NCBI GenBank assembly: GCA_036397835.1 | Contig: DASWIG010000188.1 | Location: 18,964-82,963 of the forward strand | DNA: 64,000 bases | Source: Thermoanaerobaculia bacterium | GTDB lineage: Bacteria; Acidobacteriota; Thermoanaerobaculia; Multivoradales; J023 | Direction: 5' to 3' | In this document: piece after piece, positions 31,490 to 62,300 of the stretch | Layout of the letters: each line of letters begins with the position of its first letter | Position numbering within the stretch: position 1 is the stretch's first letter | Notes under the pieces: generated by a model | Seen by the model: only the letters and a program-made list of their open reading frames with translations | What the model was told of the DNA's origin: nothing | Database searches by the model: none | Program-made: the position numbers and the translations under genes

Positions 31490-31824
31490 GGCGACAGGCT
31501 GTGTAGCGACAGGCTGTGTAGCGACAGACCGTGTATCGACCCCCAAGTCGTCTCCTTCATGCCTGGGCCTCCGGATACACCGACAACGTCGCCGGCCGTC
31601 CTCGTGGCCGCCGACGGACCCACGCTGACCATCAGTGGCCCCTATCCTACCCGGCCGTCTTTCCGGGCGCAAGAGCGCCCCCGGCCTCCGCGCTGAATCG
31701 GCGCCGTCGGGCGGACTCGCGCTTCGCCTTCGACGCGATCCCTGGTAGCCTTGGGCCTCCGAAGCGCTCGGCGGGCTGGGGACCCGCAGCCGGCCCTCGG
31801 GGCGCTCTGGGTTGGTAGCGCCGG
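31490..31824. promoter_or_regulatory. Divergent intergenic/promoter region between the giant NRPS operon (-) and the glycosyltransferase-like gene (+)
   Basis: ~335 nt with no credible coding frame (both overlapping track ORFs are R/P/G-rich). Contains the tandem 15-mers and a second direct repeat, TGGGCCTCCG, at 31564-31573 and 31752-31761. No -35/-10 consensus assigned. Confidence 0.5.
31492..31536. repeat. Three tandem 15-bp direct repeats: CGACAGGCTGTGTAG (31492-31506), CGACAGGCTGTGTAG (31507-31521), CGACAGACCGTGTAT (31522-31536), plus a partial fourth copy CGACCCCC
   Basis: Read directly from the sequence. Lies immediately upstream of the putative GTG start of the giant NRPS, inside the divergent intergenic region. 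Confidence 0.9.
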
Positions 31825-44155: not shown

Positions 44156-47100
44156 TCAGGCCTCGTCTGCGAGCTGATCGCGGACTTCCTCGTCGGAGAG
44201 CTCTGCGAGCTCTTGCAGGGCCTCGGCCAGGTCTTCATCACTGGCGTCGGCCAATTGGAGCTCCTCGACGAGGAGCGCGAGCTGGGCCACCGTCCGGACC
44301 TCGAAGAGCCTGAAGGCCGGTAAGTCGACGCCGTAGCGCTCCTGGAGGCGCGACATGATCAGGATCGCGCGCATCGAATGTCCACCCAGGTCGAAGAAAT
44401 CGTCGTGGAGACCCACGCGCTCGACCGCCAGCACCGCCGCCCATATCTCGGCGAGCTGTCGCTCCAGCTCCGTCGACGGGGCCACGTAGGGCCGGGCGGC
44501 CGCTTCCTCGAGCTCGGGCAATGCGAGGCGGTCCACCTTGCCGTTCGGCGTCATGGGCAGCTCGTCGAGGACGAGGAAGCGGCTCGGCACCATGTAGGGC
44601 GCCAGCCGCTCCTCCAGAAAGGCGCGCAGGCTCCGAGGCTCGGGATCACGCCCGACTCCTCGAGCCACGTAGGCGGCAAGCTCGATCTCGCCAGAGCCGG
44701 AGTCGCGGGCGCGGACCGCGCAGAGCTCGACGTCGGGATGAGCCCCGAGCGCCGCCTCGATCTCTCCGGGCTCCACCCGGTGCCCCCGGACCTGGACCTG
44801 GTGATCGAGCCGGCCCACGAATCGGAGACAGCCGCCGCCGTCGAAAAAGCCGAGATCGCCGGTGCGCAACAGGCGCGAACCGTGACGGCCGCTGTGAGGA
44901 TCCGGCACGAACCGCTCGGCGGTGAGCGCCGGCCGGCGCAGATAGCCGCGGCCGGGGGCGCCTCCGGCCACGTGGATCTCGCCGGTGCAGCCGATCGGCG
45001 AAAGCCGCGAGCGCCGATCGAGCACGAAGACCGCCACGCCCCGGATCGGCCTGCCGAGGGGCATCCCGTCCGGATCTTCGAACCGCCTCGGCACCGGGTG
45101 GAGCGCTACCATTCCGGCCGTTTCGGTCTGGCCGTACATGTTGACGAACCGCGGCGGGTCCTCGAAACGGCGTTCCCATTCGCGCGGGACCTCCGCCGCC
45201 AGGACCTCACCAGTCGACAGGGCGAGGCGTGGACGGTACCCGGCCGCGGCGGGAGAGCCGAGGACTTTGAGGCACCCGCGCCACAACGAGGGCACGGTAT
45301 CCATGACCGTGGCCGCGGTGTTCCTCGCAAGACCCAGGAGCCGCTTGGGATCGGACCGCTCCTCGTCGGTGGCTAGCACCAGCGCGGCGCCGCGGCTCAG
45401 CGGAACCAAGAGGTGACGCACCGAGGACGAGAAGGCGAACGAAGCGGTGTGAAGGAAGACGTCGTCTCCTCCGACTCCAAGGGCTTCAGGCAGGGAATCC
45501 AGGTAGTGAGCGAGGTTGGCGTGGCTCACCATGACCCCTTTGGGCTCGCCGGTGGAGCCCGAGGTGAACATCACGTAGGCCAGGCTTTGAGGATCGGCCT
45601 CCGGCGACGGCGCTCGCTCTTCGCGGTCCTCGTCGCGACAGTCTTCATCGAGGCGGAGCACCTGCGCGGGCGCCGGCAGCGCGTCGCGAAGGCGGCCGCG
45701 GGTCAGGATCAGGGCGGGCCGCGCCAGCTCGGCGACCCGCAGGTTCCGCTCGCGCGGATACGCGGGATCCAGAGGCACGTAGGCCCCGCCTGCCATCAGG
45801 ACGCCGAAGACACCCGCCACCATGTCCGGCGAGCGGTCGAGGCAGATCCCCACGAGCGTCTCCGGCCCGACGCCGCGCCGGCGCAGCCGGCACGCGACGT
45901 CGCCGGCGACGGCGGCGAGACGGCGGTAGCTCACGTGCTGCCCGGCGCAAATCACCGCGATCCGATCGGGCCCGTGCTCGACCCGCTCGAGAAAGAGCCG
46001 CACGGCGTCCGCGGGCCGGCGGCCGGGGACTTCCGGCGAGGAGACGCTCCAGACCTCGATCACCTCTCTCTCCGCCGGCGAGACGACGTCGAGGTCCTCC
46101 GGAAAACGGTCCGGGTCAAGGACCGCCGCGGCGAGCAGGGTCGAGAGCCGCTCCGCCATGCGGCGGGCGGAGTCGGGAGTCAGGCGGCCGGCGTCGTACG
46201 CGAGCTCGGCGTCGAGCGCCCCGGAGCACGCCGGGCCTGCGGCGCGGCGGAAGACCGCGAGCCGCACCACGAAACGCTCCGTCAGCGCGCTGTGGTGGGT
46301 CAGGGAGAAGCTCGCCTCGCCTCCCCTCCAAGAGGTCTCTCCTTCCTCGAAGAGAAAGGCCCAGGGCAGGAAGACGTCGTCCTGGGGTTGGTAGAATTCC
46401 TGCCAGTCGTAGAGCTCTTCCGTCAGCTCGAAGGCCTGGCCGGCGACTTCGCGAAAGCGCCGCCGGGGCCCGCAATCGAGGCGCAGGGGGAGATAGCGCT
46501 CCAGAGGACCGATGACCCGCTCCAGGCCTTCGTACGAACGGCCGTCGTAGCAGGTCGCGACGGGCACTTCTCGGCGGCCGGTGAGGCGGCCGAGAAGCGT
46601 GGCCCAGGCGGCCAGGATGACGGCGGCCGGGCTCACCCCCGAACGCTCGGCCAGGCGGTCGGTGGCCGCCGCGACCCCTTCGCCGAGCGTCACGGAGGTG
46701 AACCGAAGCTCAGGGGGCTCGGAGCCGCCGGTGCCCTCTAGGGGCAACCTGAGCCATCTCGTGTCGCCGGGGCGCCGATTCGCCCAGAACCGCCGTCCCT
46801 GCTCGGCGTCATCACCGTGGGCGAGCTCGTTCTGCCATTCGGCGAGGTCCACATACCGCATCGGCTCCTCGCCCTGCCGGACGCCGCCGCCGTAGGCCGC
46901 GGCGACTTCCGCCGCAAGCTGGCGAAGGCCGCGGCTGTCGGCTTGGAGCGCGGTGAGCTCGAGCTCGAGGGTCCAACGCTCCGGCGCCAACCGGATGAGC
47001 CTCGCCCTGATGGCGGAGCCGACGGCGGGCTCGGGAGACTTCCTGGTCTCGGCGGCGTCAGCGACGGTAAGCTCGACGACGGCTTCGGTCACGATCTGAA

Positions 47101-47362
47101 CCGGCAGGCGCAGCCCGGGCGGGCAGTGGAAACGGCTCCGCAGGACCTCGTGCCGCGTCACGACGTCTTGCAGGACGCTGCGCAGCCGGGACACCTCGAG
47201 TGGCCCGCGGACGTCGATCTCGAGCCGGGCAGGACAACAGGCCGGGAGAGCACCCGACTCCGGCTCGGCCCCGGCCGCCAGCGCCCACGCCCGCCTCTGT
47301 TGCGGCGACAGGCGGTATCCTCGTACAGGCTCCGGACGATCCACCGATTCCACCGGTTGCAT
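44156..47362 (-). CDS. NRPS, C-like (degenerate, lacks the HH motif)-A-PCP, 1068 aa
   Basis: ATG at 47362, 15 nt after the TauD-like stop. N-terminal ~450 aa has C-domain C1/C2-like motifs (RLSPQQRRAW, VTRHEVLRSRF) but LELTALQADSRGLRQL where HHxxxDG should be. A core LAYVMFTSGSTGEPKGV, PCP FFDLGGHSMRAILI, acidic tail DEEVRDQLADEA. Confidence 0.85.
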   Translation of the reverse strand: MQPVESVDRPEPVRGYRLSPQQRRAWALAAGAEPESGALPACCPARLEIDVRGPLEVSRLRSVLQDVVTRHEVLRSRFHCPPGLRLPVQIVTEAVVELTVADAAETRKSPEPAVGSAIRARLIRLAPERWTLELELTALQADSRGLRQLAAEVAAAYGGGVRQGEEPMRYVDLAEWQNELAHGDDAEQGRRFWANRRPGDTRWLRLPLEGTGGSEPPELRFTSVTLGEGVAAATDRLAERSGVSPAAVILAAWATLLGRLTGRREVPVATCYDGRSYEGLERVIGPLERYLPLRLDCGPRRRFREVAGQAFELTEELYDWQEFYQPQDDVFLPWAFLFEEGETSWRGGEASFSLTHHSALTERFVVRLAVFRRAAGPACSGALDAELAYDAGRLTPDSARRMAERLSTLLAAAVLDPDRFPEDLDVVSPAEREVIEVWSVSSPEVPGRRPADAVRLFLERVEHGPDRIAVICAGQHVSYRRLAAVAGDVACRLRRRGVGPETLVGICLDRSPDMVAGVFGVLMAGGAYVPLDPAYPRERNLRVAELARPALILTRGRLRDALPAPAQVLRLDEDCRDEDREERAPSPEADPQSLAYVMFTSGSTGEPKGVMVSHANLAHYLDSLPEALGVGGDDVFLHTASFAFSSSVRHLLVPLSRGAALVLATDEERSDPKRLLGLARNTAATVMDTVPSLWRGCLKVLGSPAAAGYRPRLALSTGEVLAAEVPREWERRFEDPPRFVNMYGQTETAGMVALHPVPRRFEDPDGMPLGRPIRGVAVFVLDRRSRLSPIGCTGEIHVAGGAPGRGYLRRPALTAERFVPDPHSGRHGSRLLRTGDLGFFDGGGCLRFVGRLDHQVQVRGHRVEPGEIEAALGAHPDVELCAVRARDSGSGEIELAAYVARGVGRDPEPRSLRAFLEERLAPYMVPSRFLVLDELPMTPNGKVDRLALPELEEAAARPYVAPSTELERQLAEIWAAVLAVERVGLHDDFFDLGGHSMRAILIMSRLQERYGVDLPAFRLFEVRTVAQLALLVEELQLADASDEDLAEALQELAELSDEEVRDQLADEA

Positions 47363-47377: not shown

Positions 47378-48448
47378 TCAGGCGTTGCCGGACCACATCT
47401 CGTTCATCGCCGTCAGCAGACGCCTCTCTCCCCGGTACGGGTTGCGTCCGTGGGCGGTCAACATGTTGTCGAGGAGCAGCAGGTCGCCCTGCTGCCAGGG
47501 GAAAACGGCCGCCTCGGCCCACGACGCGCTGCGAAGGTGCCCGACGACCTCGGGCTCGATCGGCGCGCCGTCGCCGTAGAAAGTGCCGTGGGGGAGGCCC
47601 TCCTCTCCCAGTCGGGACTCGAGCGCGCCGCGCACCTCCGGATCGAGGTTCGAGGCGTGAAAGAGCACCACGTGATTGAACCAGACCTCCTCGCCCGTCT
47701 CCGGATGACGGGCCAGAGCGTCACGCACCGCGCGGGTGCGCAGGCGGTTTTCGCCACGCCATTCAAAGGTGATGCCCGAGGCCGAGCAGAAGGCTTCGAC
47801 CTCGGCGCGCCGGTCGGTCTTGAACACGGTGCGCCAGTCAATCCCCAGGCCTTCGCCATAATTGCGCATGTAGAGCACCTTGCGCCGCCGGAAGCGCTCG
47901 CGGACCTGGGGGTCGATGCGCTGAAGGATTTTGCGCGTATCGGCGATGGGCGTCTCTCCGCCTTCCTCCGCCGGAATCTCGCAGAAGAAGAATAGGTTCA
48001 TCGGCCAGGTCTTGGAGTAGGCGAGCTCGCTGTGGAGGAAAATGTCCTGATCGGCCGGATAGTCCGTGGAGGTGTAGACGTTGCCGCGGATAACGCTGCG
48101 CGGCGTCGTGGCATCTCGGTAGACCGCCAGGTCCTCTCGCGAGAAGGCCCGGACCACGGCTTCGAGCTCATCGACCCCCGACAGGTCGAAACCGCGAAAC
48201 AGCACACCGCCGACGGCTCGCTGCCAAGAGCGAGCCACGGCTCGGTTGTCGCTAAGCCAAGCGGCGAGGTCCACGCCGTCGGCGGCCGGGCGCGCCACCA
48301 CGGGCAATCGGCCGTCGGCGGAGGGTTCGAATCGCACCAGGTGCTCCGCCGCGCTCCTCGGAGCCGCGCGAGCGATCCCTGATGGGAGCTTCTTGGGAAG
48401 ACGCTTCGACGTTGTTGCCGTGCTCAATTGCGCACCTCCATGTCGCAT
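47378..48448 (-). CDS. TauD/TfdA-family Fe(II)/2-oxoglutarate-dependent dioxygenase (SyrP-like tailoring enzyme)
   Basis: 356 aa from the ATG at 48448 (overlaps the last 8 codons of the PKS-NRPS; the track ORF is over-extended to 48610 through an R/G-rich stretch). FLHSELAYSKTWPMNLFFFCEIPAEEGGETPIADTRKI and C-terminal LLLLDNMLTAHGRNPYRGERRL are typical of the TauD fold as found in NRPS clusters. Confidence 0.7.
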   Translation of the reverse strand: MRHGGAQLSTATTSKRLPKKLPSGIARAAPRSAAEHLVRFEPSADGRLPVVARPAADGVDLAAWLSDNRAVARSWQRAVGGVLFRGFDLSGVDELEAVVRAFSREDLAVYRDATTPRSVIRGNVYTSTDYPADQDIFLHSELAYSKTWPMNLFFFCEIPAEEGGETPIADTRKILQRIDPQVRERFRRRKVLYMRNYGEGLGIDWRTVFKTDRRAEVEAFCSASGITFEWRGENRLRTRAVRDALARHPETGEEVWFNHVVLFHASNLDPEVRGALESRLGEEGLPHGTFYGDGAPIEPEVVGHLRSASWAEAAVFPWQQGDLLLLDNMLTAHGRNPYRGERRLLTAMNEMWSGNA

Positions 48449-51400
48449 GTCTCGGGTGCCGGCTCTCGGCGAGAGCCGGCCGCCACCGCCGTGGGCACCG
48501 GTTTGCGCCGTCGCTCCCGGGAGGCGAGCTCGCGCCGGCTTTCCTGGCGCAAACGGTCGACCGCCGAGCTCGATCGGAGCTCGGGCTCCCCGGCGATCAG
48601 CTCGAGGCACCGTTCGAAGTCCCGGGCCAGAGCGGCGATCCGTGTTTCCGTGAAGAGGTCCGGGCGGTACTCGAACGCCGCGCCCCGCACTCCGTCGGCC
48701 TGCTCGAAGACGAAGACGGTGAGATCGTACTTCGAGGTACCGCGCGCCGATTCCCAGGGCTTGAGCACCAGACCCGGCAGCTCCATGGGCTCGTCGGGGT
48801 CACGCTGCACGATGAACATCACTTGAAACAGGGGCGCCCGGGTGGGATCGCGGGGCAAATCGAGCTCCGCCACCAGCCTCTCGAGAGGCAGGTCCTGGTG
48901 GGCGTAGCCGCCGAGGGCCACCTCGCGGACCCGTCTGAGCAGTTGGCCGAGCGTCGGATCGCCGTCGAGCCGCGTCCTGAGGACCATGACCGCGGCGAAC
49001 AGGCCGATCAACTCCTGCGTGCCGAGGGCGTTGCGTCCGGTGATCGGAGAGCCCACGAGGAGGTCCTCCTGGCCCGTGTGGCGGTAGAGCAACAAGTAGA
49101 ACCCGGCCAGAAGGGCCATGAAGAGGGTCGCCTCCTCGGCATCGGCCCGGCTCTTCAACCTATTTCCGAGGCCGTCGGCGAAAGCAACCGTATGGCGTGC
49201 GCCGCGAAAGCTCCGGAGCGCGGACCGGGGATAGTCGGCGGGGAGCTCCAAGGCCGCCGGAGCGCCGGTCAACTGGTCCTTCCAATAAGCCAGTTGTCGA
49301 TCGACCCGCTCCGCCGTCATCCAGCGGTCCTGCCACACGGCATATTCCACGTAGCGAAATGTGAGCTCCGGCAGGAGCGCCGGGCGGCCCTCCAGGCGAG
49401 CTCGGTAAAGGGCGACGAGCTCGCGTACGAAGAGGATCTGGGAAAACCGATCGCAGACCAGGTGGTGGAGGGTGATGGCGAGGACGTGCTCGTCGCCTTC
49501 GAGCCGTAGGAGCAAGACCCGTACGAGCGGGCCGCGCTCCAGGTCGAACGGCCGGGCGAGCTCGGCTCGCACCTGCCGGTGCGCCTCGCGTTCGCGGCCG
49601 TCCCTCGCCAGAGCGCTCAGGTCGACCTCCCTCACCAGGCACCGGAGATCGTCCGAAATGGTCTGAGCCGGCGCGTCACCGGCCAAGTGGAAGGTCGCCC
49701 GGAGCTCGTCCTGGCGCCGCGTCAACGCGTCGAGCGCGCTCTGCAGGTCATCGATCCGAAGCCTGCCGGAAAGGCGCAGGACGGTGGGCACGTTATAGGT
49801 CGGCGTGCCGGGGCGCAGGCGTTCGAAGAGCCAGATCTGGCGCTGGTTGAAGGAGAGGGGGAAGGGCCCCGGGCCGTCCCGCCGCTCGATCTCTCCGGCG
49901 GTGTCGCCGCCGTCCTCGCTTCCGAGCTCGGTCACCGCGGCGGCAAGCTCGGCGATGGTCGGGGCTTCGAAGATCGTCCGCAGAGACGGACGGACCGCGA
50001 AGTGCTGCTCGGTGAACGCTACCAGGCGCGTGGCGAGCAGCGAATCGCCACCGAGATCGAAGAAGTTGTCATGGACTCCGACCTCGGACAACCCCAGCAG
50101 GTCGCGCCAGATCGATGCCATTCGATCCTCGAGGTCGGTGCGCGGCGCGACCATGGCGGTGGCCAGGTCGGGCCGCGGGTGATTGGCTCCGGCCTGGGAT
50201 CGGAGCTGGTCGATCCGGTCGAAGTGGCGGCTCGGAGTCTGCTCGGCGAGCGCCCGCAGGCGGGTCGGAAGGTGGCGGGTCGAGATCAGCATTTGCGGCG
50301 GCAGGCGGTACAACCCGAGCAGACGGCGCAGGACCTCGGCACCTTCCCGCGGCCGGATCGCGGCCAGAAGCTCCTCTTCGCGCTCGCCTGCCCGCTCGTG
50401 AGTGTGGGCGAGAGCCGCGCCGATGTCCTGGGTGGCGCCGGCGGCGCCGATGGCGGCGGGATCGACGCGGCGCAGCGTGTACCCCTCGATCTCGACGAGC
50501 ACTTCTCCTTCCAGGTCGAGGAGCGTGAGATCGGTGGTCAGGATCTCGTCGGTCAGGGCTCGCAGGCGGGCATGGCTATAGAACGACCGCGGCAACGGAC
50601 GCAGCGGTCGCAGTCTCTCGTAGCCGTAGGGCAGGTAGAGCCCTTCCGCTCGGCGCTGGACGAAGCCGGTCGCGCCGTCGAGGAGCGCCGGATGGAGGCC
50701 GTAGACCCCGATCTCGGCGGCGAGCTCTTCGGCCAGGGTAATGGTGAGAAGGCCTTGGGAGTCGCCCCAGCGTAGCTGCTTGCTCGTTGTCGTCCAGTGG
50801 GGGCCGAAGAGGAAGGAACCGGACCGCCGATCGGCGCTCGCCGCGGCAGCCTCGTCGAGCTCGCTGCACTCGCGCCGGATCGCTTCCACGTCGACGGCGG
50901 GAATGGGCGAGGCGGTCCGCCGCACGGCCCGGCCCTCGACGTGGCGCACCGGCTCGCTCCCGAGCTCGGCCGAGCGGCTGTCGACGTGGAAGGCGAATCC
51001 GTCGTCGCGACGTTCCAGAGTGAGGTGCGCCCAGCGCTGCCCGGCGTCGGGCACGACCATGGGCTGGAGGAAGTAGACCTGGCGCAGCTCCCACTCGGCG
51101 TCGCCGAGCCTCTCCGCGCAGGCGGCACGGACCATCTCCAGGTATCCCGTGCCCGGCATCACCCCGCCATCGGTGAAGCGGTGCTCGTCGAGGACCCAGA
51201 AGTCCGCGGTGGTCAGCTTCGTGCGGTAGACGATCCTCTCCCCCGAGTCGTAGACGCACTCGCCCAGAAGCGGGTGATCCGGAGCGTAGAGGATCTCTTC
51301 AGGCTCGCCGATCAGCCCGAAGCTGGCCGCCGCTGCCACGGCTTGTCCGACCTCCTGCCAGGCGTCCCAGTTGACGCTCATCACGCGGGTGCCGCCGACG

Positions 51401-54400
51401 AGCGCCGCGGACTGGGCGAAGGCGTCGAGGAAGGAATTGGCGGCCGTGTGGTCGGTGAGACTGAAAGAGCCCGTGATCGCCGTGAGCGACGAGCACAGAA
51501 GAAGAAAGTCCGGCCGCTCGGCAGCGAAGACCCGCTCCAAGACCCGCGTGCCCTGCACCTTGGGAGCCAGGACCTCCGCCATGCGCGCGCGCGTCGTGAT
51601 CTCGAGGAATCCCCCCGGGAAGACGCCGGCGGCATGGAGAATGCCGTCGACGGCGCCGAACCTCCGCCTCACCTCGGCGCGGAGCTGCTCCATCGCCTCG
51701 ACGTCGGTGACGTCGGCCGCGGCAACCAGGACCTCGGCTCCGAGCTCCTGGCAGGCTCGAATCCGCCGGATTCGTCGGCTCACGGGATCGGAGGGCGGGT
51801 TTCCGGCGACGTGGCCGTCCCACGCTGAAGCTGGCGGAAACGCCGACCGGGTCACCAGCACGAGCCGCGCCTGGACGCTGCGGGCGAGCTCCTCGGCCAT
51901 CACCAGGCCCAAGCCGCCGAGGCCGCCCGTGATCAGGTAGACCCCTTGCGACTTGAGCAGAGATCTCGCTTCCCCAGCCGCCCCCGGCACCGGAACGTCG
52001 ACCCTTTCGAAGTCACGCCGCCAGCGCCGCGAGCCGCGATAGGCCACCGGCGAAATCCCGCCCATGTCGTCGAGCTCGCGGCGCACGGCGTCGAGCAGGT
52101 GCTCCTCAAGCCGGCTCTCCGGCGGTGGAAGAGCGAGCTCCAGGCACCGGCATTCGATGCCGGGGAACTCCTGAGGAATGACGGCGCAGGGACCGAGGAT
52201 GGTCGCTTTTTCGGGATGGACTTCATCGTGTCCTGTCACCTGAAAGAGATGGCTCGATAACACCCACAGGCCCAGAGCTTGCGGCGGCCGGCCTGCTGCG
52301 AGCGCCTGCGCCAGGAAGATCAGGCTGTAGAGCCCCAGGTCCAGATCCCGCTCAGGTTCCGGCGCGGCCGGTCCCAGGGTCCAAAGGTGCACGATGCGAT
52401 CGATCTCGTGGCCCTCGGCGCGCAGGTCCGTGAGGAGGTCGCTGTAGCCTCCGGGCTCACCGGGCTCGAGCGTGAAGGCGCCCGGCTCGACCTTGGCGAA
52501 GCGCTCTCCGGCCGCCACCAGCACCACCGTGTGCCCTTCGTCCTCGAGCCTCTCGGCCAGCCGCAGGCCGAAGCCCGCCTCTTCGATGAAGAGCACCCAG
52601 GTGCGCCTCGGCCCGGGCGTCGCCGGCGCCGTCAGCGCCGGAGGCTCCGGCTTCCAGGCCGGTAGGTAGAACCAGTCGTCGAGAGCGGTCTTGGCGAGCG
52701 TCGCCAGGGCCTCGTTGGGCACCGCCGTGTCCAAGCGAGACCGGGCCTCGATCCAGAACCGCTTCCGCTCGAAGGGATAGGTGGGCAGCGGCACGCGACG
52801 TCGGCGCTCCCCGGCCGCGAAGCTCGGCCAGTCGACGACCACGCCGGCGATCCACAGGCGTGCCAGCGCGTCGAGCAGGTACGCCTGGTCGGAATGCCGG
52901 TCGAAGGCGTGGCGCAAGGTGGGTACCGCCAGCCGTTCGACTCCGTCGCTCGCGGGCGCCTGCAGAGCCCAGGAGCTCAGGACCTGGCCGGGTCCGACCT
53001 CGACCAGCGCGCGAGCGGCATCCGCGCCCAACTGCGCGACCCCGGCCGCGAACCGTACGGGTCGGCACAGGTGATCGGCCCAGTAGCCCGGATCGGTCGC
53101 CTGCCCGGCCGTGATCCAGGTCCCGGTCACGTTGGAAACGAAAGGGATGCGCGGCGCCCGGAGGTTCGCTCGCGCGACGCGTTGGCGGAAGGCGGCGACG
53201 ACGGGGCTCATCATGGGGGAATGGAACGCGTGCGTGGTCTCGAGGCGGCGAGCGACGTCCCCTCGCTCTTCCAGCCGCCGGGCCAGGTCGGCGACGGCGT
53301 CCGGGGCCCCGCCCACCACGGTGACTCGCGGGGCGTTGACCGCAGTGATCGACAGGTCGGGCGTCAAGAGAGCTTCGACCTCGGCTTCGGAGATCGACAC
53401 GGCGAGCATCGCGCCGGCCGGCAGGCGGTCGATCATCTCGGCGCGGTCGGCGACCAGAGCGAGGCCGTCCTCGAGGTCGACCACCCCCGCCAGGCAGGCG
53501 GCTACGTACTCGCCGATGCTGAAGCCGAGCATCGCCGCCGGCCGCAGCCCCCACTCCACGAGCAGACGCGCGAGCGCGTACTCCACGGCGAAGAGCACCG
53601 GCTGCGCCAGCCGGGTCCTCAGCAGCTCGCCCGCCGCGCCGCCGTCGCCCTCGGCCGAGCGGCCGATCAAACGGGCGAAGTCGCTCTTGGGGGTGCTCCG
53701 CGCGATCTCGGGGGGATAGAGGACGGTCCGGAAATCGAGCCCCAACCGGGGCTCGAGCAGCTCGGCGCAGCGGTCGATCTGATCGCGGAAAACCGCCTCC
53801 TCGTCATAGAGCTCGCGGGCCATACCCACGTAGTGGTTGCCGAGGCCGGGGAAGAGGAACGCCACGGTGGCCCCCTCCGGCCGCGGCCGGCCGGTGAGCA
53901 GACGGCTCGGATGCTCGCCGCGCAGCAGCGCCGGCACGTCGTCGCCGCAGCGGCAGACCAGGGCGCGGCGGTGCTCGAAGGGCCGCCGGCCGAGCCGCAG
54001 AGTGTGGGCGACGTCCGCCAGCGCCTCCGGCGAGCTCGCCGGGCCGGCGGCGCCCGAAAGGTGCTCGGCCAGCCGGGCGGTCATCGTCGCGAGCGCGGAA
54101 GGCGTGCGGGCCGACCACACCAGGAGCTGGTGAGGCCGGCTGGCGCCGGAAGGCTCCGGAGGGGGCGCTTCCTCGAGCACCAGATGAGCATTGACGCCGC
54201 CCATGGCGAACGAGCTCACGCCCGCGCGGCGCGGCGCGGCCCCGGCGCCCTGCCACTCCCGCCCTTCCGACTGGACGTAGAAAGGGGTCGCGGCGAAGTC
54301 GACGTGGGGATTGGGCGTCGAGAAGTGGAGGCTTGGCGGCAAGAACCGGTGCTCGAGCGCGAGGACCACCTTGAGCAGGCCGGCGACGCCGGCGGCGATG

Positions 54401-55467
54401 TCGAGGTGGCCGATGTTCGTCTTGACCGAGCCGAGAGCGCAGAAGCCCGAGCGCTGCGTGGTCTCGCGGAAGACCTCGCTCAAGGCGGCGACCTCGATCT
54501 GGTCGCCCAACGGGGTGCCGGTGCCGTGGGCTTCGACGTAGGAGATGGTCTCGGCGTCGACTCCGGCCATGGCCTGCGCCATCGCCACCACCTCCGCCTG
54601 GCCGTCGACGCTGGGCGCCGTGTAGCCGGCCTTGAGAGCGCCGTCGTTGTTCATCGCCCAGCCACGGATCACCGCGTGGACGTGGTCGCCGTCTTCGAGG
54701 GCCTCGGCAAGACGCTTCAAGACGACGACGCCGACGCCGCGGCCCGAGACCGTGCCGTTGGCCTCGGCGTCGAAGGCGCGACAACGGCCGTCGGGGCTGA
54801 AGATCCCTTCGTGGGCGACGTAGCCGGATCGGCCGGGCAGGCTCAGCGCTACGCCACCGGCGAGCGCCATGTCGCACTGGTGGTTGAGCAGGCTTTGGCA
54901 GGCGAGAGCGGCGGCGACGAGCGAGGTGGAGCACGCCGTCTGAACGCTGGCGCACGGTCCCTGGAGATTCAGCTTGTAGGCGGTCAGCGAGGCGAGAAAG
55001 TCCTTGTCGTTCAGGATCCGAAGCTGGAAGGTGCTGACGGTTCGGGCCACCTCGGGATTGGCGGCGAGGTGATTGGCAAGGTAGAGGGGCGCACCCATGC
55101 CGCCGAAGACGCCGATCGAGCCGCCATAGGAGAACGGATCGTAGCCGGCGTTCTCCAGCGCCTGCCAGGCGTGCTCGAGGAAGAGGCGGTGGTGCGGATC
55201 GACGATCCGCGCCTCGGCCGGGTTGAAATCGAAGAACGCCGCGTCGAAGCTCTCGAAGCCTTCGATGACGCCGCTGGCGCGGACGTACCGGGGCTCGTTG
55301 AGCAAGAGCGGCGAGACCCCCGCCTCCTCGAGCTCCTCCCGGCGGAAGGAGGTGATCGATTCGACTCCTCCGCACAGGTTCCGCCAGTACTCGTCGAGGT
55401 CGGCGGCCCCGGGAAAGCGGGCCGACATGCCGACGATGGCGATACCTTCGATCCGCGATCCGCTCAT
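48424..55467 (-). CDS. Hybrid PKS-NRPS, 2347 aa: KS-AT(HAFH; GFSIG elbow)-psiKR-KR(Tyr position is His)-DH-like-ACP-C
   Basis: True start ATG at 55467-55465 (MSGSRIEGIAIVGMSARFPGA), overlapping the TGA of the methyltransferase gene (ATGA); the ~700 aa R/G/P-rich N-terminal extension in the track ORF 48424..57582 is a wrong-frame read-through. KS: TACSTSLVAAALACQ, EAHGTGTPLGD, KTNIGHLDIAAG. AT: FLFPGLGNHY, AMLGFSIGEY (53515-53535), HAFHSPMM. KR: GVYLITGGLGGLGL...HAAG and LTDHTAANSFLDAF (His codon CAC at 51450-51448 where the catalytic Tyr is expected). DH-like, after the KR: HPLLGECVY, LDEHRFTDGGVMPGTGYLEM, LHPALLDGATG (50665-50710). ACP NFFDLGGDSLLATRL. C: LSFNQRQIWLF...HHLVCDRFS. Stop TGA 48426-48424. 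Confidence 0.85.
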   Translation of the reverse strand: MSGSRIEGIAIVGMSARFPGAADLDEYWRNLCGGVESITSFRREELEEAGVSPLLLNEPRYVRASGVIEGFESFDAAFFDFNPAEARIVDPHHRLFLEHAWQALENAGYDPFSYGGSIGVFGGMGAPLYLANHLAANPEVARTVSTFQLRILNDKDFLASLTAYKLNLQGPCASVQTACSTSLVAAALACQSLLNHQCDMALAGGVALSLPGRSGYVAHEGIFSPDGRCRAFDAEANGTVSGRGVGVVVLKRLAEALEDGDHVHAVIRGWAMNNDGALKAGYTAPSVDGQAEVVAMAQAMAGVDAETISYVEAHGTGTPLGDQIEVAALSEVFRETTQRSGFCALGSVKTNIGHLDIAAGVAGLLKVVLALEHRFLPPSLHFSTPNPHVDFAATPFYVQSEGREWQGAGAAPRRAGVSSFAMGGVNAHLVLEEAPPPEPSGASRPHQLLVWSARTPSALATMTARLAEHLSGAAGPASSPEALADVAHTLRLGRRPFEHRRALVCRCGDDVPALLRGEHPSRLLTGRPRPEGATVAFLFPGLGNHYVGMARELYDEEAVFRDQIDRCAELLEPRLGLDFRTVLYPPEIARSTPKSDFARLIGRSAEGDGGAAGELLRTRLAQPVLFAVEYALARLLVEWGLRPAAMLGFSIGEYVAACLAGVVDLEDGLALVADRAEMIDRLPAGAMLAVSISEAEVEALLTPDLSITAVNAPRVTVVGGAPDAVADLARRLEERGDVARRLETTHAFHSPMMSPVVAAFRQRVARANLRAPRIPFVSNVTGTWITAGQATDPGYWADHLCRPVRFAAGVAQLGADAARALVEVGPGQVLSSWALQAPASDGVERLAVPTLRHAFDRHSDQAYLLDALARLWIAGVVVDWPSFAAGERRRRVPLPTYPFERKRFWIEARSRLDTAVPNEALATLAKTALDDWFYLPAWKPEPPALTAPATPGPRRTWVLFIEEAGFGLRLAERLEDEGHTVVLVAAGERFAKVEPGAFTLEPGEPGGYSDLLTDLRAEGHEIDRIVHLWTLGPAAPEPERDLDLGLYSLIFLAQALAAGRPPQALGLWVLSSHLFQVTGHDEVHPEKATILGPCAVIPQEFPGIECRCLELALPPPESRLEEHLLDAVRRELDDMGGISPVAYRGSRRWRRDFERVDVPVPGAAGEARSLLKSQGVYLITGGLGGLGLVMAEELARSVQARLVLVTRSAFPPASAWDGHVAGNPPSDPVSRRIRRIRACQELGAEVLVAAADVTDVEAMEQLRAEVRRRFGAVDGILHAAGVFPGGFLEITTRARMAEVLAPKVQGTRVLERVFAAERPDFLLLCSSLTAITGSFSLTDHTAANSFLDAFAQSAALVGGTRVMSVNWDAWQEVGQAVAAAASFGLIGEPEEILYAPDHPLLGECVYDSGERIVYRTKLTTADFWVLDEHRFTDGGVMPGTGYLEMVRAACAERLGDAEWELRQVYFLQPMVVPDAGQRWAHLTLERRDDGFAFHVDSRSAELGSEPVRHVEGRAVRRTASPIPAVDVEAIRRECSELDEAAAASADRRSGSFLFGPHWTTTSKQLRWGDSQGLLTITLAEELAAEIGVYGLHPALLDGATGFVQRRAEGLYLPYGYERLRPLRPLPRSFYSHARLRALTDEILTTDLTLLDLEGEVLVEIEGYTLRRVDPAAIGAAGATQDIGAALAHTHERAGEREEELLAAIRPREGAEVLRRLLGLYRLPPQMLISTRHLPTRLRALAEQTPSRHFDRIDQLRSQAGANHPRPDLATAMVAPRTDLEDRMASIWRDLLGLSEVGVHDNFFDLGGDSLLATRLVAFTEQHFAVRPSLRTIFEAPTIAELAAAVTELGSEDGGDTAGEIERRDGPGPFPLSFNQRQIWLFERLRPGTPTYNVPTVLRLSGRLRIDDLQSALDALTRRQDELRATFHLAGDAPAQTISDDLRCLVREVDLSALARDGREREAHRQVRAELARPFDLERGPLVRVLLLRLEGDEHVLAITLHHLVCDRFSQILFVRELVALYRARLEGRPALLPELTFRYVEYAVWQDRWMTAERVDRQLAYWKDQLTGAPAALELPADYPRSALRSFRGARHTVAFADGLGNRLKSRADAEEATLFMALLAGFYLLLYRHTGQEDLLVGSPITGRNALGTQELIGLFAAVMVLRTRLDGDPTLGQLLRRVREVALGGYAHQDLPLERLVAELDLPRDPTRAPLFQVMFIVQRDPDEPMELPGLVLKPWESARGTSKYDLTVFVFEQADGVRGAAFEYRPDLFTETRIAALARDFERCLELIAGEPELRSSSAVDRLRQESRRELASRERRRKPVPTAVAAGSRREPAPETCDMEVRN
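50300..51180 (-). other. DH-like domain located C-terminal to the KR
   Basis: HPLLG N-terminal motif, HxxxDGxxxP (HRFTDGGVMP) and HPALLDGA motifs; position confirmed at nucleotide level (50665-50710 encodes GVYGLHPALLDGAT). Confidence 0.6.
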
Positions 55468-56387
55468 CTCGCGATCCCCCGGCGCTGGGATCTCGCCGCG
55501 GCGAACAGCCGGCCGGCGCGGACACGGGTCCTGGACAAGGCCGGGCGGCCCACCGTTTCCGCCGGCCTGGACCGCGCGGCGTAGAGGTTCCAGATCGGCG
55601 AGCTCTCGTAGTGGACGTCCTGATCGGCGACGACCGTGAACCCACGCTCTTCGAGGACCTCGCGCAGACGCTCCACGCGCCCCGCGACGTCGTGGACCTC
55701 GACGACCACCTGGCGGATCTTGGGCCAGTCGGCCGGCTCGATGCCGGCCAGCACGTCCTCCTCGCTCTTTTGCACGTCGATCTTGAGCAGGTCGATCCGC
55801 TCCACTCCCTCGTCGCGAATGACCTGGGAGAGCGGCAGCAGCTCGACGTCGAAAGTCTTGTTGCGCAACCGCTCGGCGAGCAGGTCGTCGGCATGCTCGA
55901 GGACCTCCTCGACGCCCTCGACGCCTTGACGCCGCTGATTCTCGAAGATCGATCGCAGGGCCTCGCGCTCCTCGTCTGGATCGCCGTAGAACGACGACAT
56001 GCCGGAGCTCGAGAGGTAGAAGGTGAGCGTGCCCCGGCCGCTGCGGCGCGAGACGCCGCAGTGGAACAGCCGCACGGCTTCGCCATGGCCGGCGGTGTTG
56101 TGGCGCAGGATCTCGAACAGTGCCGGCGCCGGCTCGAACGCGTAGACCCGGGCACGCGGGCTGAACCGGAGGGCGAAGAGCGTGAAGAGCCCGATGTTGG
56201 CCCCCACGTCGAAGACGCACTCCGCGTCCGAGAGATCGATACCGTGGCGCACGTAGATCCTCTTGACGAAGATGTCCTCGTAGAAGTACCTCGCCTCGCT
56301 GGTGGTCTGACAGGCGATCTCCAGACCGTTGGGCAGGCTGAGCCGACGCGGGACCGAAGCGCTGATCGGGGGTAGGGGTTCCGGCAC
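55464..56387 (-). CDS. FkbM-family SAM-dependent methyltransferase, 307 aa
   Basis: GTG start at 56387 (12 nt after the upstream NRPS TAG at 56402-56400). ECVFDVGANIGLFTLFALRFSP is the FkbM-family SAM-binding signature; the TGA stop overlaps the PKS ATG. Confidence 0.75.
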   Translation of the reverse strand: MPEPLPPISASVPRRLSLPNGLEIACQTTSEARYFYEDIFVKRIYVRHGIDLSDAECVFDVGANIGLFTLFALRFSPRARVYAFEPAPALFEILRHNTAGHGEAVRLFHCGVSRRSGRGTLTFYLSSSGMSSFYGDPDEEREALRSIFENQRRQGVEGVEEVLEHADDLLAERLRNKTFDVELLPLSQVIRDEGVERIDLLKIDVQKSEEDVLAGIEPADWPKIRQVVVEVHDVAGRVERLREVLEERGFTVVADQDVHYESSPIWNLYAARSRPAETVGRPALSRTRVRAGRLFAAARSQRRGIAR

Positions 56388-56399
56388 CTGTGAGATCCT

Positions 56400-59300
56400 C
56401 TAGCCAAGTGAGCGGGGAGCACGCCTGCCCTCGCGGCGGCGCTGCATGAATTGCTTTTGCCGGTCGAGAGCGCCCGACGCCGCGATCGCTTCGCTCTGGC
56501 GCCGCGCCCTCTCGCGGCTCTGCTCGACGTTGTCCGCGTCCGTGTGCTTGCCTTCCAGAAGCTGCGCCAGAGAAGCGATCGTGGGGCGGCGAAAGAGGTC
56601 GACGAGAGAAACCGGGCCGGTGAAGCTGCGCTGGATCTCCTGATGGACGCGGACGAGGAGCAGCGAGGTCCCACCTGCCTCGAAGAAGTTCTCGTTGCGG
56701 CCGACGCGGTCGATCTTCAGCACCTCTTTCCACACGGCGGCGAGGCGCCGCTCGGTCTCGCCGGCGGGAGGAGCGAGCTGCGCTGCGTCGCCGCGGTGCC
56801 GGAACGTTTCCTGCCGCGGCAGGGCTCGGCGGTCGACCTTGCCGCTCACGGTCAGCGGCAGGGCCTCGAGGAAGGAGAAAAAGCTCGGCACCATGTGCTC
56901 GGGAAGGTGGCGGCGCGCCAGGGCGGCGAGCGCGGCCGGATCGGGCGGGGCGGCCGCGCCGCGCGGGACGACGAAGGCCACGAGCCGGCTCTCCGGCGCG
57001 TCGCCGTCCGGGGCCACGACCACCTGGCCCACCGCGGGGTGGCGGCGCAGAACCGACTCGATCTCTCCGGGCTCGATGCGGTAGCCGTTGAGCTTGAGCT
57101 GGTGGTCCACGCGGCCGAGGAACTCGAGGCTGCCGTCTCCGCGGCGCCGCGCCAGGTCCCCGGTGGCGTAGAGCCGGCCGCCGGGCACGACGGCGAAGGC
57201 GTCGGGCAGGAAACTGGCCGCGGTCAGCGCAGGCCGCCCGCAATAACCGCGCGCCAGGCCGGCACCGGCGATCAGGAGCTGTCCCGGCACCCGGGCCGGG
57301 GTGGGCCGAAGGTGGCGATCGAGCACGTAGATCCGCGTGTTGAGGATCTCGCGGCCGATGGCGACGGGGCCGGGGCCCGACTCGACGCGGCACGTGGCCG
57401 ACCAGATCGTGGTCTCGGTCGGGCCGTACACGTTGAGGATCCGGGCCCGCGTTTTCTCCCGCAGCTCGCTCAGGAGCGCCGGCGTCAACGTCTCGCCGCC
57501 GATCAAGAGCGTTTCGAGATTCGCCAGACCGGGAGCCGCGGCGCTGTCCGCCGCCAGGATCCTGGCCATCGACGGCGTACACTGCAGGTGGGTGACCTGA
57601 TGGCGCACGAGCTGCTCGGGCAGGGAGTAGCCCGTCTCCCGGACGGCCCGCGGCACGCCGTCACGGCGCAGGTCGGCGAGCGGCTCGAGGCTTTGCAGAA
57701 CGAGGTCGGCGTCGACTCCGAAATCGATCAGGCAGGCCACCTCGTCGACGCCGATCGAGCCGAGCGTGTGGATCGTCCGCGCGCAGGTTTCCGGGGTCCC
57801 CATGAGGCCGCTCTGATCGAAGTAGCGCTCGAAGCCGTGCGCCAGGACCGCTTCCTGCTCTTCGGGAGAGTAGTCCTCTGCCCGGCCCTGGCGGCCCAGG
57901 CTGCGCATCAGGTTGCTGACCAGCCCGGCCGAGCTGCGCAAGTAATCGTAGAACGGCTCGCGCACCAGCTCGCGCACCTCGTCGAGCCGCTCGCCCACGA
58001 AGGTGTGGAGCATCAACGTCACGTGCCCCTTGCCCGGGCCCCGGCCGGCCTCGCGCCAGGCCTGGCGGTAGACGGCGATCTTGTCGGCCACGTCGGCCAC
58101 GCTCTGGCCCAGCAGGTGGGTGAGAATCCCGGCCCCCATTTCGCCGGCGAGGCGAAACGTTTCGGGGTTGCCGCTGGCGGTGATCCACACGGGCAGCTCG
58201 GCCTGGACCGGCTGCGGACGGATCGTCACCGCGACCTCGTTGCCGCCGCCGCCCGCGAGCACTACCGCTTCGCCGTGCCAGAGGCGGCGCACCGTCTCGA
58301 TCTCGCGCAGCATGAGCTGCTTGCGGTCGGCGTAGTTGGCCGGGGCGAGGACGAAGTCGTCGGCATGCCAGCCGGAAGCGAAGGAGATTCCCACTCTTCC
58401 GCCCGAGATGTTGTCGACGACCGCCCACTCTTCGGCCACCCGCACCGGGTGGTGGAGAGGCAGGACCACGCTGCCGGCCCGGATCCCGACCTTCTCGGTG
58501 ACCGCGGCCACCGCCGATCCGGTGGTCGCGGGATTGGGATAGAGACCGCCGAAGTCGTGGAAGTGGCGCTCGGGTGTCCACACCGCGGCGAAACCGAGCC
58601 GATCCGCGGCTCGCGCCCCATCGAGGAGCAACCTATAAGCGCCGCCGCGGCGGCCGCCGGCGCCGGTTTGCGGCCGGGCGCTGGCGAAGTAGAAGAGACT
58701 GAGCTCCATGGCGCGCCGCGCCGCGGGCCGGGCGGCCCGGGCCGGCGTCTCCTGAGGGATCCCGCGGTGGCCTCCGAGCGAGTGTTGGAGGACGACGGTG
58801 GCGCCTCGGGTCAGCGTCCAGAAGAGCTCCAGCACCGAGATGTCGAAGGAAACGCTGGTGGCCGCGAGCCAGGTCCCCGGCTCGTCGCGCCCAAGGCGTT
58901 CATCCATGCCGGCGAAGAAGCTCACCACCTGGCGATGGGAGATCATGACCCCCTTGGGACGGCCGGTCGAGCCCGAGGTGTAGATGACGTAGGCCAGGTT
59001 GTCGGGCCCGGCCGGAAAAGGCCCGGCCGGGGCACGCCCGCGGGCGGCGGGGGTCAGGGATTCGACCCGGATTCCTTCGACGGACGCGCCCCCGTCCGGC
59101 GTGGCCGCCGAGCCCCGCACGAGGAGCAGGGCGGCGCCGGCGTCGGCCAGCATGAGCTCCCGGCGTCGTCGCGGGTAGGCCGGGTCGAGGGGCAGGTAGG
59201 CGCCGCCCGCCTTGAGCACGCCGAGCAAACCGACGACCAGCTCGGGACCACGGTCCATCTCGATCCCGACCACGATCTCCGGACCGACGCCCAGCGACTC

Positions 59301-62300
59301 GAGGCGGCGGGCGAGACGGCCGGCGCGGCGGTCGAGCTCCTCGTAGGTCAGCCGCTGGCCCTCGAAGTGAAGCGCCGGCGCCCCCGGCGACGCCGCGGCG
59401 CGCGTCTCGAAGAGCCCGTGAACCGTCGCCGGGGCGACGCCGCGCTCCGTGTCGGTCCACTCGCCCACGAGCTGCCACCGTTCGACTCGGCTGAGCACGT
59501 CGATCGCCGACAAGCGTAAGGCCGGATCCGAGGCCACGGCCTCGACGAGGCGCGCATAGTGGCAAGCCAGATGGCGGATCGTGGTGGCGTCGAAGAGCTC
59601 CGTCTTGTACTCGACGACGCCTGCAACGCCTTGCGCGGTTCGCCGCAGCGACAGCGTGAGGTCGAAGCGGGCGATCTCGGAGTCGAGGCTCATGGCCTGC
59701 GCCGCGACGCCTGGGAGCTCGAGGTCCTCGCCGACGGCGTGCCGGAAGTTGAACATCACCTGGAAGACCGGCGTGTAGGCGGGGCTACGCCGCGGCGCTA
59801 GATGCTCGACCACCCGCTCGAGGGGCACACCGAGGCGCGTGAAGGCCGTCAATACGGTTTCGCGGACCCGCTGCAGCAGGTTGGCGAAGCTCGGGTCGCC
59901 GGAGAGCCTGGTCCGCAAAGGCACCAGGTTGAGGAACAGCCCGATCAAGCCTTCGGTCCGCTGCTGGGGACGGTGGGAGACGGGAGAGCCCACCACGACG
60001 TCGGCTTCTCCCGTGTAGCGAAGGAGAAGGACCTTGAAGGCCGCCAGCAAGGTCATGAACAGGGTTGCGCCGTGGCGCCGGCTCATCCCGGTCAGGGCGT
60101 GCTCCGCGTCCGACGCCAGCCGCACCGCGCAACTGGCGCCCGCGAAGCCCATGACCGCCGGCCGAGGCCGGTCGGTGGGCAGCCCGAGCAGGGGCGGCGC
60201 CCCGGCCAGCGACTCCCGCCACTCGGCGAGCTCGCTCTCGGCGGCCCCGCTCTCGAGCCAGCGACGCTGCCAGGCCGCGTAGTCGGCATACTGCAAGGCC
60301 GGCTCCGGCAGGGTCGTGCCCGCGGCTCGCTCGCGACCGCTCCGGTAGAGCGCGCTCAGCTCGCCGACGAAGATCCGCAACGACTCCCCGTCGCTGACCA
60401 GGTGATGGGCGGCCACCAGCAGCACGTGGTCGCTTTCCCCTAGCCTGAGCACGGTGCAGCGCAGGGCGCCGCCGCGCTCCAGGTCGAACGGCCGCCCGAT
60501 CTCCCCGCGCATCCGGCGGCGGAGCTCGTCCGGGCGCACGCCGGCGGGAAGAGCGGAGAGGTCGGCGGTCGAAAGCGGCACCGGGGCGGGAGGAGCGAAG
60601 ACCTGCACCGGCCGCCCGTCTCGAATCTCTACTCGTAGCCGGAGGACTTGGTGGCGGCGAACGATCTCGTCGACGGCCTGCCCGAGCGCCGTCACCGAGA
60701 GCTCGCCGCGAAGCCGAAAGGCGCTCGCCAGGTTGTAGAGGGGACGGCCCGCGTGGAGATTCTCGAAGAACCACAGCCGCTCCTGGGCGAATGCCAGGGG
60801 CACGCCGTCCCGGTCCGCGAGAGGCTCGAGAGCCGGGACCGAGGGGCCGGCGCTCCGGCGCGCGCCGTCGATACCGGCGGCGAGCTCGGCGATCGACGGC
60901 CGCTCGAAGACCGTTCTCAACGCCATTTCGATCCCCAGGAGATCGCGAACCCGGGTCAGCATCCTCACGGCCAGGAGCGAGTGCCCTCCGAGCTCGAAAA
61001 AGCTCTGTTCTCGCCCCACGGTGCCCCGGTCCAGGAGCTCGCACCAGATCCCGGCCAGGAGCTCCTCCGTGGCGGTGCGCGGCTCGTCGCCAGGCTCCGG
61101 TTCGAGGGCCCGCGGCAGCGGCCGCTCTTCCAGAGCTCGTCGGTCCACCTTGCCGTTGGGGGTCAGAGGCAGAGAGTCGATAGCCGCGAAGTCGTGGGGC
61201 ACCATGTAGGGGGGCAGCTCGCCGCGCGCGTGCCGCGCCAGCTCGGCGAGCAATCGCGGCGCATCCCGCCGGCCGGGACTTGTCTGGACGTGGGCCCGAA
61301 GCCGGACCTCGCCATCCTCGGCCCGGTGCGCGGTCACCACCGCTCGGCGCACCGCCGGATGGCGCTCGAGCGCCGCTTCGATCTCCGCCGGCTCGATCCG
61401 GTACCCCAGGACCTTCAACTGGTGGTCGACCCGGCCGAGGAACTCCACGGCTCCGTCGGCCAGGCGGCGACACCGGTCACCGGTGCAGTAGAGGCGCTCC
61501 CCGGGCTCGCCGACGCGCGGATCGGGCACGAATCGCTGCGCCGTCGCCGCCGGTCGCCCCAAGTAGCCGCGGCCGACCGTGGCGCCGCCGACCAGGAGCT
61601 CTCCCGCCACCCCCGCCGGAGCCGCCCGCAGCGCCGAATCGGCCACCAACGCCCGCGTCTGCGGCAGGGGGCGGCCCAACGGCACCCGGTCGGTTTCCAG
61701 CGGACCGGGCTTGTGGTCGAGCGCCCAGGTCAGGCAGCCGACCGTGGCCTCGGTGGGCCCATAGTGGTTGAAGATGCGGCATTCAGGCGCGACCGCGCGG
61801 ACGCGGTCCACACTCTCGCGACTCGCCGCCTCGCCTCCCAGCACCAGGCGCAGCCGCGGCAGCACCTCGCCGAACCGGGAGGAGCCTGCCAACGCCGCCA
61901 GGTGCGAGGGCACGATCTTTGCGCAGTCGAGACGGTGCCTCAGGTTGTACTCGGCCAGCGCCTCGGCGTCGGCCGCAATCCTCGACGGCACCACGTGCAG
62001 ACGGCCGCCGCGGCAGAGCGCGGGAAAGACCATCGTGTGACCCAGGTCGGCGGCGAACGTCGTGAGCAGGGCGTAGGCGGCGCCTTCCGGCAGGCGGAGT
62101 CGCTCGCCGACGCCCCGGACGTAGGCGGCCAACTGGCGGCGCTCGATCGCCACGCCCTTGGGTGCTCCCGAGGAGCCCGACGTGAAGATCACGTAGGCCA
62201 GGTTCTCCGGACGGACCCGAACGGACGCATCCCGCCGCTCGTCGGCCCTGGACGGCCCCGGAGATGAACCGCCGTCCAGGAACAGGACCGGCGCGGCCGC

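Follow-up and report, generated by a model that had tools for sequence, protein, structure and literature searches.

A polyketide synthase module with the ketoreductase ahead of the dehydratase, from a Thermoanaerobaculia bacterium, belongs to a conserved non-canonical module type with a His-type sub-branch

The DNA analyzed here, a 64,000-nucleotide stretch of contig DASWIG010000188.1 from a Thermoanaerobaculia bacterium (hereafter the window, with positions counted from its first letter), encodes a polyketide synthase (PKS) module in which the dehydratase (DH) follows the ketoreductase (KR). The module belongs to the minus-strand gene 48424..55467, a hybrid that joins PKS with nonribosomal peptide synthetase (NRPS) and whose 2347-residue product reads KS-AT-psiKR-KR-DH-ACP-C, psiKR being the structural subdomain of the KR. 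An earlier note, made from the sequence alone, had pointed out that this order is unlike the textbook KS-AT-DH-(ER)-KR-ACP, and that observation is confirmed. We find that the KR-before-DH module is a conserved, non-canonical module type and not a one-off rearrangement. Furthermore, while the architecture itself was already known, the window gene is part of a sub-branch with an altered KR active site, in which the catalytic Tyr is replaced by His, that was not previously characterized.

The window has a composition of about 70% G+C and carries a long minus-strand run of NRPS and PKS genes. Based on the list of open reading frames (ORFs), the translation and Pfam, the PKS gene starts at the ATG at 55467 (MSGSRIEG..., MSGSRIEGIAIVG...) and its stop ends at 48424, which are exactly the coordinates that the earlier note had given. 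It forms a single uninterrupted frame of 2347 codons with all catalytic motifs. The ORF listed at this place, 48424..57582 (-), is 3052 amino acids long; its first ~705 codons are spurious and result from out-of-frame read-through over the neighboring FkbM gene and the upstream NRPS. This over-long ORF is an artefact of the high GC content and would lead automated gene callers astray.

The domains were placed with Pfam, and all of the matches far exceed the curated cut-offs; positions are given as residues in the numbering of the long ORF, followed by window nucleotides on the minus strand. The KS (residues 713-1087, 54322-55446) has its Cys-His-His triad intact (TACSTS, HGTGT, NIGH), and the AT (residues 1242-1557, 52912-53859) carries a malonyl-type HAFH motif and the elbow GFSIGE at 53509-53526. 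They are followed by the psiKR (PF21394; residues 1682-1834, 52081-52539) and by the catalytic KR subdomain (residues 1880-2077, 51352-51945; also placed by family alignments), with its Rossmann motif GVYLITGGLGGLG at 51907-51945 and HAAG at 51625-51636. Only then comes the DH, whose double hotdog as a whole spans 50455..51276 and is made up of PKS_DH_N (residues 2103-2203, 50974-51276; 72.1 bits against a cut-off of 27) and PS-DH (residues 2230-2376, 50455-50895; 59.2 bits against 23.7), with HPLLG at 51262-51276, HRFTDGGVMPG at 51151-51183 and LHPALLDGATG at 50665-50697. The ACP (PP-binding; residues 2487-2550, 49933-50124) has its GGDS serine motif at 50041-50052, and the fused condensation domain (C; residues 2574-3006, 48565-49863) has an intact HHLVCDR motif. 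Hence, Pfam agrees with the domain order of the earlier note, including the ACP and C domain after the DH, and every motif quoted there was found at its place.

The 322-residue segment between AT and KR (51946-52911), where a canonical cis-AT module would have its DH, had no matches other than to the post-AT linker and to the structural subdomains of KRs (6ulw, MlnE); there was no DH or hot-dog match (Pfam E<=10, PDB E<=1). Pfam also detects no ER domain in the gene. The module is thus contained on one polypeptide with no DH between AT and psiKR, and it is embedded in NRPS modules, with a PCP upstream and a C domain downstream.

The conservation of this arrangement was examined in two ways. 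The psiKR-KR-DH-ACP part of the window protein (911 amino acids) was used to query a protein database, and the best 120 clusters, out of a total of 2698 matching proteins, were examined; in a scan of species-representative genomes, 79 loci were fetched of 522 matching stretches. The totals of 2698 proteins and 522 stretches are not architecture-specific, as they may include KR-only or canonical DH matches, and are no measure of prevalence. The best 120 clusters are 32-51% identical to the query, with coverage of mostly 97-100%, and for 108 of these 120 proteins the match runs from KR through DH in a single BLASTP segment. The closest protein, from an Acidobacteriota metagenome-assembled genome (MAG), is 51% identical and the closest genome locus about 45%; near-identical proteins were looked for in the protein database and none was found. 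In all 79 fetched loci, tblastn with the window domains recovered KS-(AT)-psiKR-KR-DH-ACP on one strand, with the AT match missing in three (L017, L022, L040) and an ER present after the DH in four (L024, L030, L046, L074). Most of these loci have the module between an NRPS PCP and a C domain. The hosts include Acidobacteriota, Actinomycetota (Micromonospora, Amycolatopsis, Nonomuraea, Saccharothrix), cyanobacteria (Nostoc, Acaryochloris), Chloroflexota, Bacillota, Ignavibacteriaceae and Candidatus Parabeggiatoa. The "rearranged module" that the earlier note had considered is in fact a conserved type.

The same note had sought precedents mainly among polyunsaturated fatty acid (PUFA) synthases and pyran synthase or isomerase domains; the KR-DH order is, however, also carried by ClbB of the colibactin pathway, encoded on the pks island of E. 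coli, and by module 6 of BE-43547/rakicidin. The PKS module of ClbB is written KS-AT-KR-DH-ER-T in the literature and reduces its unit fully. In clbB of E. coli CFT073, Pfam places the KR at 340-511, DH at 547-799, ER at 850-1142 and ACP at 1246-1307, after C-A-T-KS-AT. Like the window module, ClbB has KS-AT-psiKR-KR-DH...ACP on one polypeptide right after an NRPS module. The psiKR-KR-DH of the window aligns with it in a single high-scoring segment pair of 618 residues that spans the KR-DH junction (24% identity, E 2e-36), and the catalytic motifs are in register (LDEHRFTDGGVMPGTGYL in the window versus LDEHRISGIATLPGTGYL in ClbB; LHPALLDGATG versus LHPALLDIASS), such that the two share the DH motifs LDEHR..PGTGYL and LHPALLD. 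ClbB differs from the window module in having an ER between DH and ACP, in its full reduction and in keeping the KR Tyr; the residue upstream of it is Ala, and a fused C domain is lacking. The window gene, with no ER between DH and ACP, is not of the fully reducing ClbB type.

The second precedent belongs to the 4-amido-2,4-pentadienoate cyclolipodepsipeptides (APD-CLD). A 2026 preprint describes module 6 of BE-43547/rakicidin with a non-canonical KR-DH order and reports, from heterologous reconstitution, that this module by itself is enough to install the 4-amidopentadienoate. In that work, the KR was shown to act before the DH, whose dyad proved essential: His/Asp to Ala mutants of the DH abolish the product and accumulate the KR-reduced intermediate, and a 'DHt' called by antiSMASH just upstream of the KR proved catalytically irrelevant. 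The module also performs a second, γ,δ elimination. By the paper's description, its likeness to the window module lies in the KR-DH order and the essential His/Asp (HPALLD). Unlike the window module, it follows a Ser module and gives a 2,4-dienoate by double elimination. The upstream residue is thus Ser versus Gly in the window, and the DH motif is HxxxGHGxxP versus HRFTDGGVMP, such that neither of these APD-specific features is found in the window module. The Micromonospora loci with a PKS, TauD and C-A-PCP were considered as candidate rakicidin/BE-43547 clusters and rejected, the code of the nearest upstream A domain not being Ser-like and the DH motif being HRIGGVPVVP, not HxxxGHGxxP; the Amycolatopsis loci carry HRIGGVPVVP in the DH as well. 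A text search of the literature by domain strings turned up only the ClbB paper, a remark on enediynes and loose uses of the notation, and the rhabdobranin paper does not discuss domain order.

Among solved structures, the best relatives of the window psiKR-KR are the KRs of MlnE and PksJ and the A-KR of 6ulw, with both subdomains aligned. These trans-AT and NRPS-embedded KRs are its closest PDB matches (MlnE 6e-39, 6ulw, PksJ, down to 2e-28); unlike them, the window KR has His at the Tyr site, reading G-[L/M]-x-D-H instead of G-Q-x-D-Y. The canonical DHs CurF, CurK, CurH, difficidin and PksJ DH1 share the double-hotdog fold and the His/Asp dyad with the window DH, but in the cis-AT systems among them the DH lies between AT and psiKR, whereas in the window it comes after the KR.

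We consider it fairly probable, judging from domain content and motifs, that the product of the window gene serves as one chain-extending module in a large NRPS/PKS line, yielding an α,β-unsaturated γ-amino acyl unit. The KS would accept a peptidyl-glycyl chain from the upstream PCP, the glycine of which is probably α-hydroxylated by an embedded monooxygenase (MOx) and possibly O-methylated by the coupled FkbM. The AT would load malonate, as indicated by its HAFH motif, and the KR would reduce the β-keto group. The DH, tethered to the KR C-terminus by a short flexible linker, would then remove water by means of its His/Asp dyad to give an α,β-unsaturated γ-amido acyl-ACP, a vinylogous glycine unit, which the fused C domain would join to the next amino acid. 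Reduction is the least certain of these steps, because the sub-branch combines a KR His for Tyr with an AT elbow of G[Y/F]SxG.

Several observations weigh against this scheme, most of them at the KR. The catalytic Tyr of the window KR is replaced by His (codon CAC at 51448-51450, within GSFSLTDHTAAN), the motif reading SLTDHTAAN versus the family consensus GQxDYxAAN. Tyr-to-His mutants of classical short-chain dehydrogenases/reductases (SDRs), such as Y152H of Drosophila alcohol dehydrogenase, are inactive, and reduction by the window KR cannot therefore be assumed. Since the stereochemistry motifs LDD and Trp are both absent from the window KR, the configuration of the alcohol is not predictable either. 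In the AlphaFold2 (AF2) model of the KR-DH didomain, the loop bearing the His (residues 157-167) has a predicted local confidence (pLDDT) below 50. In the DH, the Gly of HxxxGxxxxP is replaced by Asp. Finally, at locus L081 (P0003) a stand-alone psiKR-KR(His)-DH-ACP protein was found with no KS or AT nearby; together with the methoxymalonyl-like gene set of that locus, it suggests that the His-type sub-branch may have another role.

According to the strongest competing explanation, which we nonetheless hold to be unlikely and which draws on the inactive SDR mutants and on the stand-alone L081 protein, there is no reduction by the His-type KR, and the module delivers a β-keto unit or a β-methoxy-enoyl unit made by FkbM, with the DH acting elsewhere or serving as a structural element; it could, for example, eliminate the hydroxyl or methoxy group installed by MOx, or process a glycerate-derived unit. 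To see whether the His-type KRs make up a single clade, 187 KR-DH didomains were placed in a neighbor-joining tree (without bootstrap support), in which 22 His-type sequences, including that of the window, form one pure clade whose sister is a largely actinobacterial Tyr-type group (n=43). The substitution is thus fixed in a clade of 22, as the non-reducing explanation would have it. Against it, the window KR departs from the catalytic set Lys-Ser-Tyr-Asn at the Tyr only and keeps TGGLGGLG and the cofactor-binding Arg and Asp, and in 22 of 22 clade members, wherever the position is aligned, the NADPH-binding residues are preserved along with Lys, Ser and Asn. A dead reductase should drift, but the KR/DH identity ratio is 1.31 for the His-type sequences versus 1.21 and 1.33 for the Tyr-type groups. 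The preserved cofactor-binding and catalytic residues, and a KR that has not relaxed compared with its DH, argue for a His-type active site that is working and not decayed. The DH dyad is invariant in the His clade too, and one review takes His as an accepted substitute at this site, the tyrosine being 'sometimes replaced by histidine'. Not all His-type KRs fall into the one clade, as L012 is an independent His-type singleton. L012 comes from a Candidatus Parabeggiatoa communis MAG with two KR-DH modules, the other being L024, a Tyr-type module whose DH is followed by an ER.

The change in the KR is accompanied by others around it. An AT elbow of G[Y/F]SxG is found in 10 of 10 scorable His-type modules and in the window, versus GHSxG in 61 of 61 Tyr-type modules; every His-type module and 59 of the 61 Tyr-type modules retain the HAFH motif, and the KS triad is intact throughout. 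Directly upstream of the PKS gene lies the FkbM-family methyltransferase gene (55464..56387, minus strand; Pfam), whose stop overlaps the PKS start codon (ATGA), indicating translational coupling, and whose product is 51% identical to the stand-alone FkbM of L081. At 8 of 9 scorable His-type loci, but at 0 of 52 Tyr-type ones, an FkbM lies within 2 kb upstream of the KS (Fisher p ~3e-9, with no correction for shared ancestry). This association counts in favor of the non-reducing explanation. Nevertheless, apart from the lack of correction, L005 is a true exception, with no FkbM and with housekeeping genes upstream, and some relatives (L002, L013) carry the FkbM domain inserted between MOx-A and PCP, an arrangement indicating that the methyl group goes to the glycine-derived unit instead of a β-enol.

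Further support for an explanation without reduction comes from genes for 3HCDH, ACAD, ACP and HAD/FkbH-like proteins, a methoxymalonyl-ACP-like set carried by several His-type relatives. At L081 (530-13258 of an ENA metagenome contig), A-FkbM-PCP is followed by 3HCDH, ACP, acyl-CoA dehydrogenase, HAD/FkbH-like and FkbM methyltransferase genes and then by the KR(His)-DH-ACP protein. Such a set, as in L081, L003 and L013, was looked for and is absent within the 64-kb window, where the AT has the malonyl-type HAFH; the window ends 131 nucleotides upstream of the start of the neighboring NRPS gene.

That NRPS gene (56400..63869, minus strand) reads C-A-PCP-C-A(MOx)-PCP by Pfam, sequence reading and code extraction. 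Its last A domain has the code DILQLGVIWK, matching glycine at 9 of 10 positions, and the corresponding codes of the His-type relatives read ..Q[LM]G[LM][VI]W. A luciferase-like monooxygenase (Bac_luciferase, residues 1721-2042, about 57744-58709, minus strand) is inserted into this A domain between FDIS (a4) and NVYGPTE (a5). A glycine A domain split between a4 and a5 by such a monooxygenase is also found in MtaG and MelG, in which the embedded enzyme hydroxylates the glycine α-carbon; SolF of solanimycin is likewise among the closest known systems. In contrast to MtaG/MelG, where a terminal thioesterase (TE) releases glyoxylate and a peptide amide, there is no TE after the MOx module of the window: the PCP is followed by the coupled FkbM and by the PKS, to which the chain would pass. 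Solanimycin B and skyllamycin are known to keep α-hydroxyglycine mid-chain.

Returning to the DH, we conclude from its sequence and its model that it is an ordinary double-hotdog dehydratase, unusual only in its position on the polypeptide, with its activity predicted. The catalytic His is encoded at 51181-51183 (HRFTDGGVMP) and the Asp at 50677-50679 (HPALLD), and neither residue varies in any of the 109 aligned homologs or any of the 79 loci. In a sequence search of the PDB, the best match is the DH of CurF (E 2e-20, 273 of 307 residues covered), followed by trans-AT DHs (5hqw, PksJ DH1, 7zmf), CurK, AlnB and GphF DH1. In the AF2 model of the didomain (mean pLDDT 78, predicted TM-score 0.56), a Rossmann KR is joined to a complete double hotdog by a linker of ~22 residues modeled at low confidence; the uncertainty of this linker and of the loop at the KR active site is too great to place the His or to judge the KR-DH interface. 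The DH half of the model superimposes on the CurF DH with a TM-score of 0.87 and 2.6 Å (Foldseek), and the top 50 fold matches in the PDB are dehydrating PKS DHs, a few multidomain PKS structures containing one, and the bifunctional GphF DH1.

The earlier note had proposed instead that the domain might act as an enoyl isomerase or cyclase. This explanation, which takes the domain for a specialized relative that does not dehydrate, for instance a pyran synthase, can draw on the unusual position after the KR, on GphF DH1, a dual dehydratase/isomerase, among the PDB matches (E 9e-14), and on a Gly four residues after the catalytic Asp, a trait of the family at a site where Gln or His is usual. 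In addition, the related BE-43547 module performs an additional vinylogous elimination, and the DH of myxoglucamide has been linked to a β,γ double bond. Against this, the domain carries no hallmarks of pyran synthases or enoyl isomerases, no dyad residue is lost, the top matches are plain dehydratases (CurF, CurK, difficidin, AlnB, PksJ DH1), and not one pyran synthase is among the top 50 fold matches. ClbB, with the same arrangement, needs normal dehydration for its full reduction, and the Gly upstream of the window module offers no side-chain hydroxyl for a second elimination. We therefore regard a non-dehydrating domain as very improbable, although the window DH may have a side isomerase activity. 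The chemistry of the module may still go beyond plain α,β-dehydration, given that the BE-43547 module carries out its second elimination and that the window KR has His for Tyr.

Two other explanations carry almost no weight. That the order reflects a faulty assembly, a recent rearrangement at this place or gene decay could be suspected from its unusual nature and from a long ORF with junk upstream codons, but is refuted by the intact frame with its motifs, by the coupling to the upstream neighbor and by the recurrence of the order in 79 of 79 loci of unrelated assemblies and in E. coli ClbB. An iterative synthase of the PUFA (PfaA) or enediyne (PksE) type, the class best known for having the KR ahead of the DH, and the one to which a genome paper assigns the KR-DH pair as 'specific for PksE', is refuted by the layout: PfaA and PksE are iterative, have their ACP(s) between AT and KR and lack NRPS neighbors, whereas the window gene has its ACP after the DH, NRPS partners on both sides and a terminal C domain, and the domains closest to its DH and KR are of the modular cis-AT/trans-AT and NRPS-embedded kinds.

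Further genes and domains lie elsewhere in the window. Between the PKS-C gene and the next NRPS lies a TauD-family dioxygenase gene (47378..48448, minus strand; Pfam and start mapping), which probably encodes a β-hydroxylase for a carrier-bound amino acid; the layout PKS-TauD-C-A-PCP recurs in many Micromonospora loci (L021, L026 and others). The next NRPS gene (44156..47362, minus strand; Pfam and motif scan) encodes a C-like domain, an A domain and a PCP. The C-like domain (~46442-47317, minus strand), at the N-terminus of this protein, lacks HHxxxDG and directly follows the intact C domain fused to the PKS, and such a tandem C-C after the ACP recurs in L013, L016, L032, L033 and L048. Further along, a nitroreductase-type oxidase domain (~20351-20884, minus strand) within a 4486-residue NRPS with five C-type domains (18374-31834) suggests that a thiazole or oxazole is formed at a later point of the assembly line. 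An ORF resembling family-2 glycosyltransferases (31825-32895, plus strand) is located between two giant NRPS genes, and more NRPS A and PCP coding sequence is found near the window start (2224-5805, minus strand), where large plus-strand ORFs (e.g. 844-4374) have no Pfam matches and are probably spurious.

Taken together, the KR-before-DH order departs from the textbook layout that underlies structural models of reducing PKS modules, and it is prone to mis-handling by annotation software. The arrangement was termed rare in the BE-43547 preprint; here it has been verified in 79 species-level genomes across many phyla. Because of this spread and of its usual position at NRPS-to-PKS junctions, the module can be recognized as a unit for genome mining and engineering, making vinylogous or γ-amino acid units. 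The His-type sub-branch consists mostly of acidobacterial clusters, with correlated changes in two active sites and fixed partner enzymes. It is conceivable, though doubtful, that the KR His with its change of GQ to G[L/M], the AT G[Y/F]S elbow, the FkbM and the MOx-glycine module make up a distinct reductive loop that processes an α-oxygenated glycine N,O-acetal of the α-hydroxy or α-methoxy kind. If so, a γ-alkoxy vinylogous glycine could lose methanol to give a conjugated N-acyl-imine electrophile, and the sub-branch would represent a novel cassette for warhead formation, comparable to the APD module.

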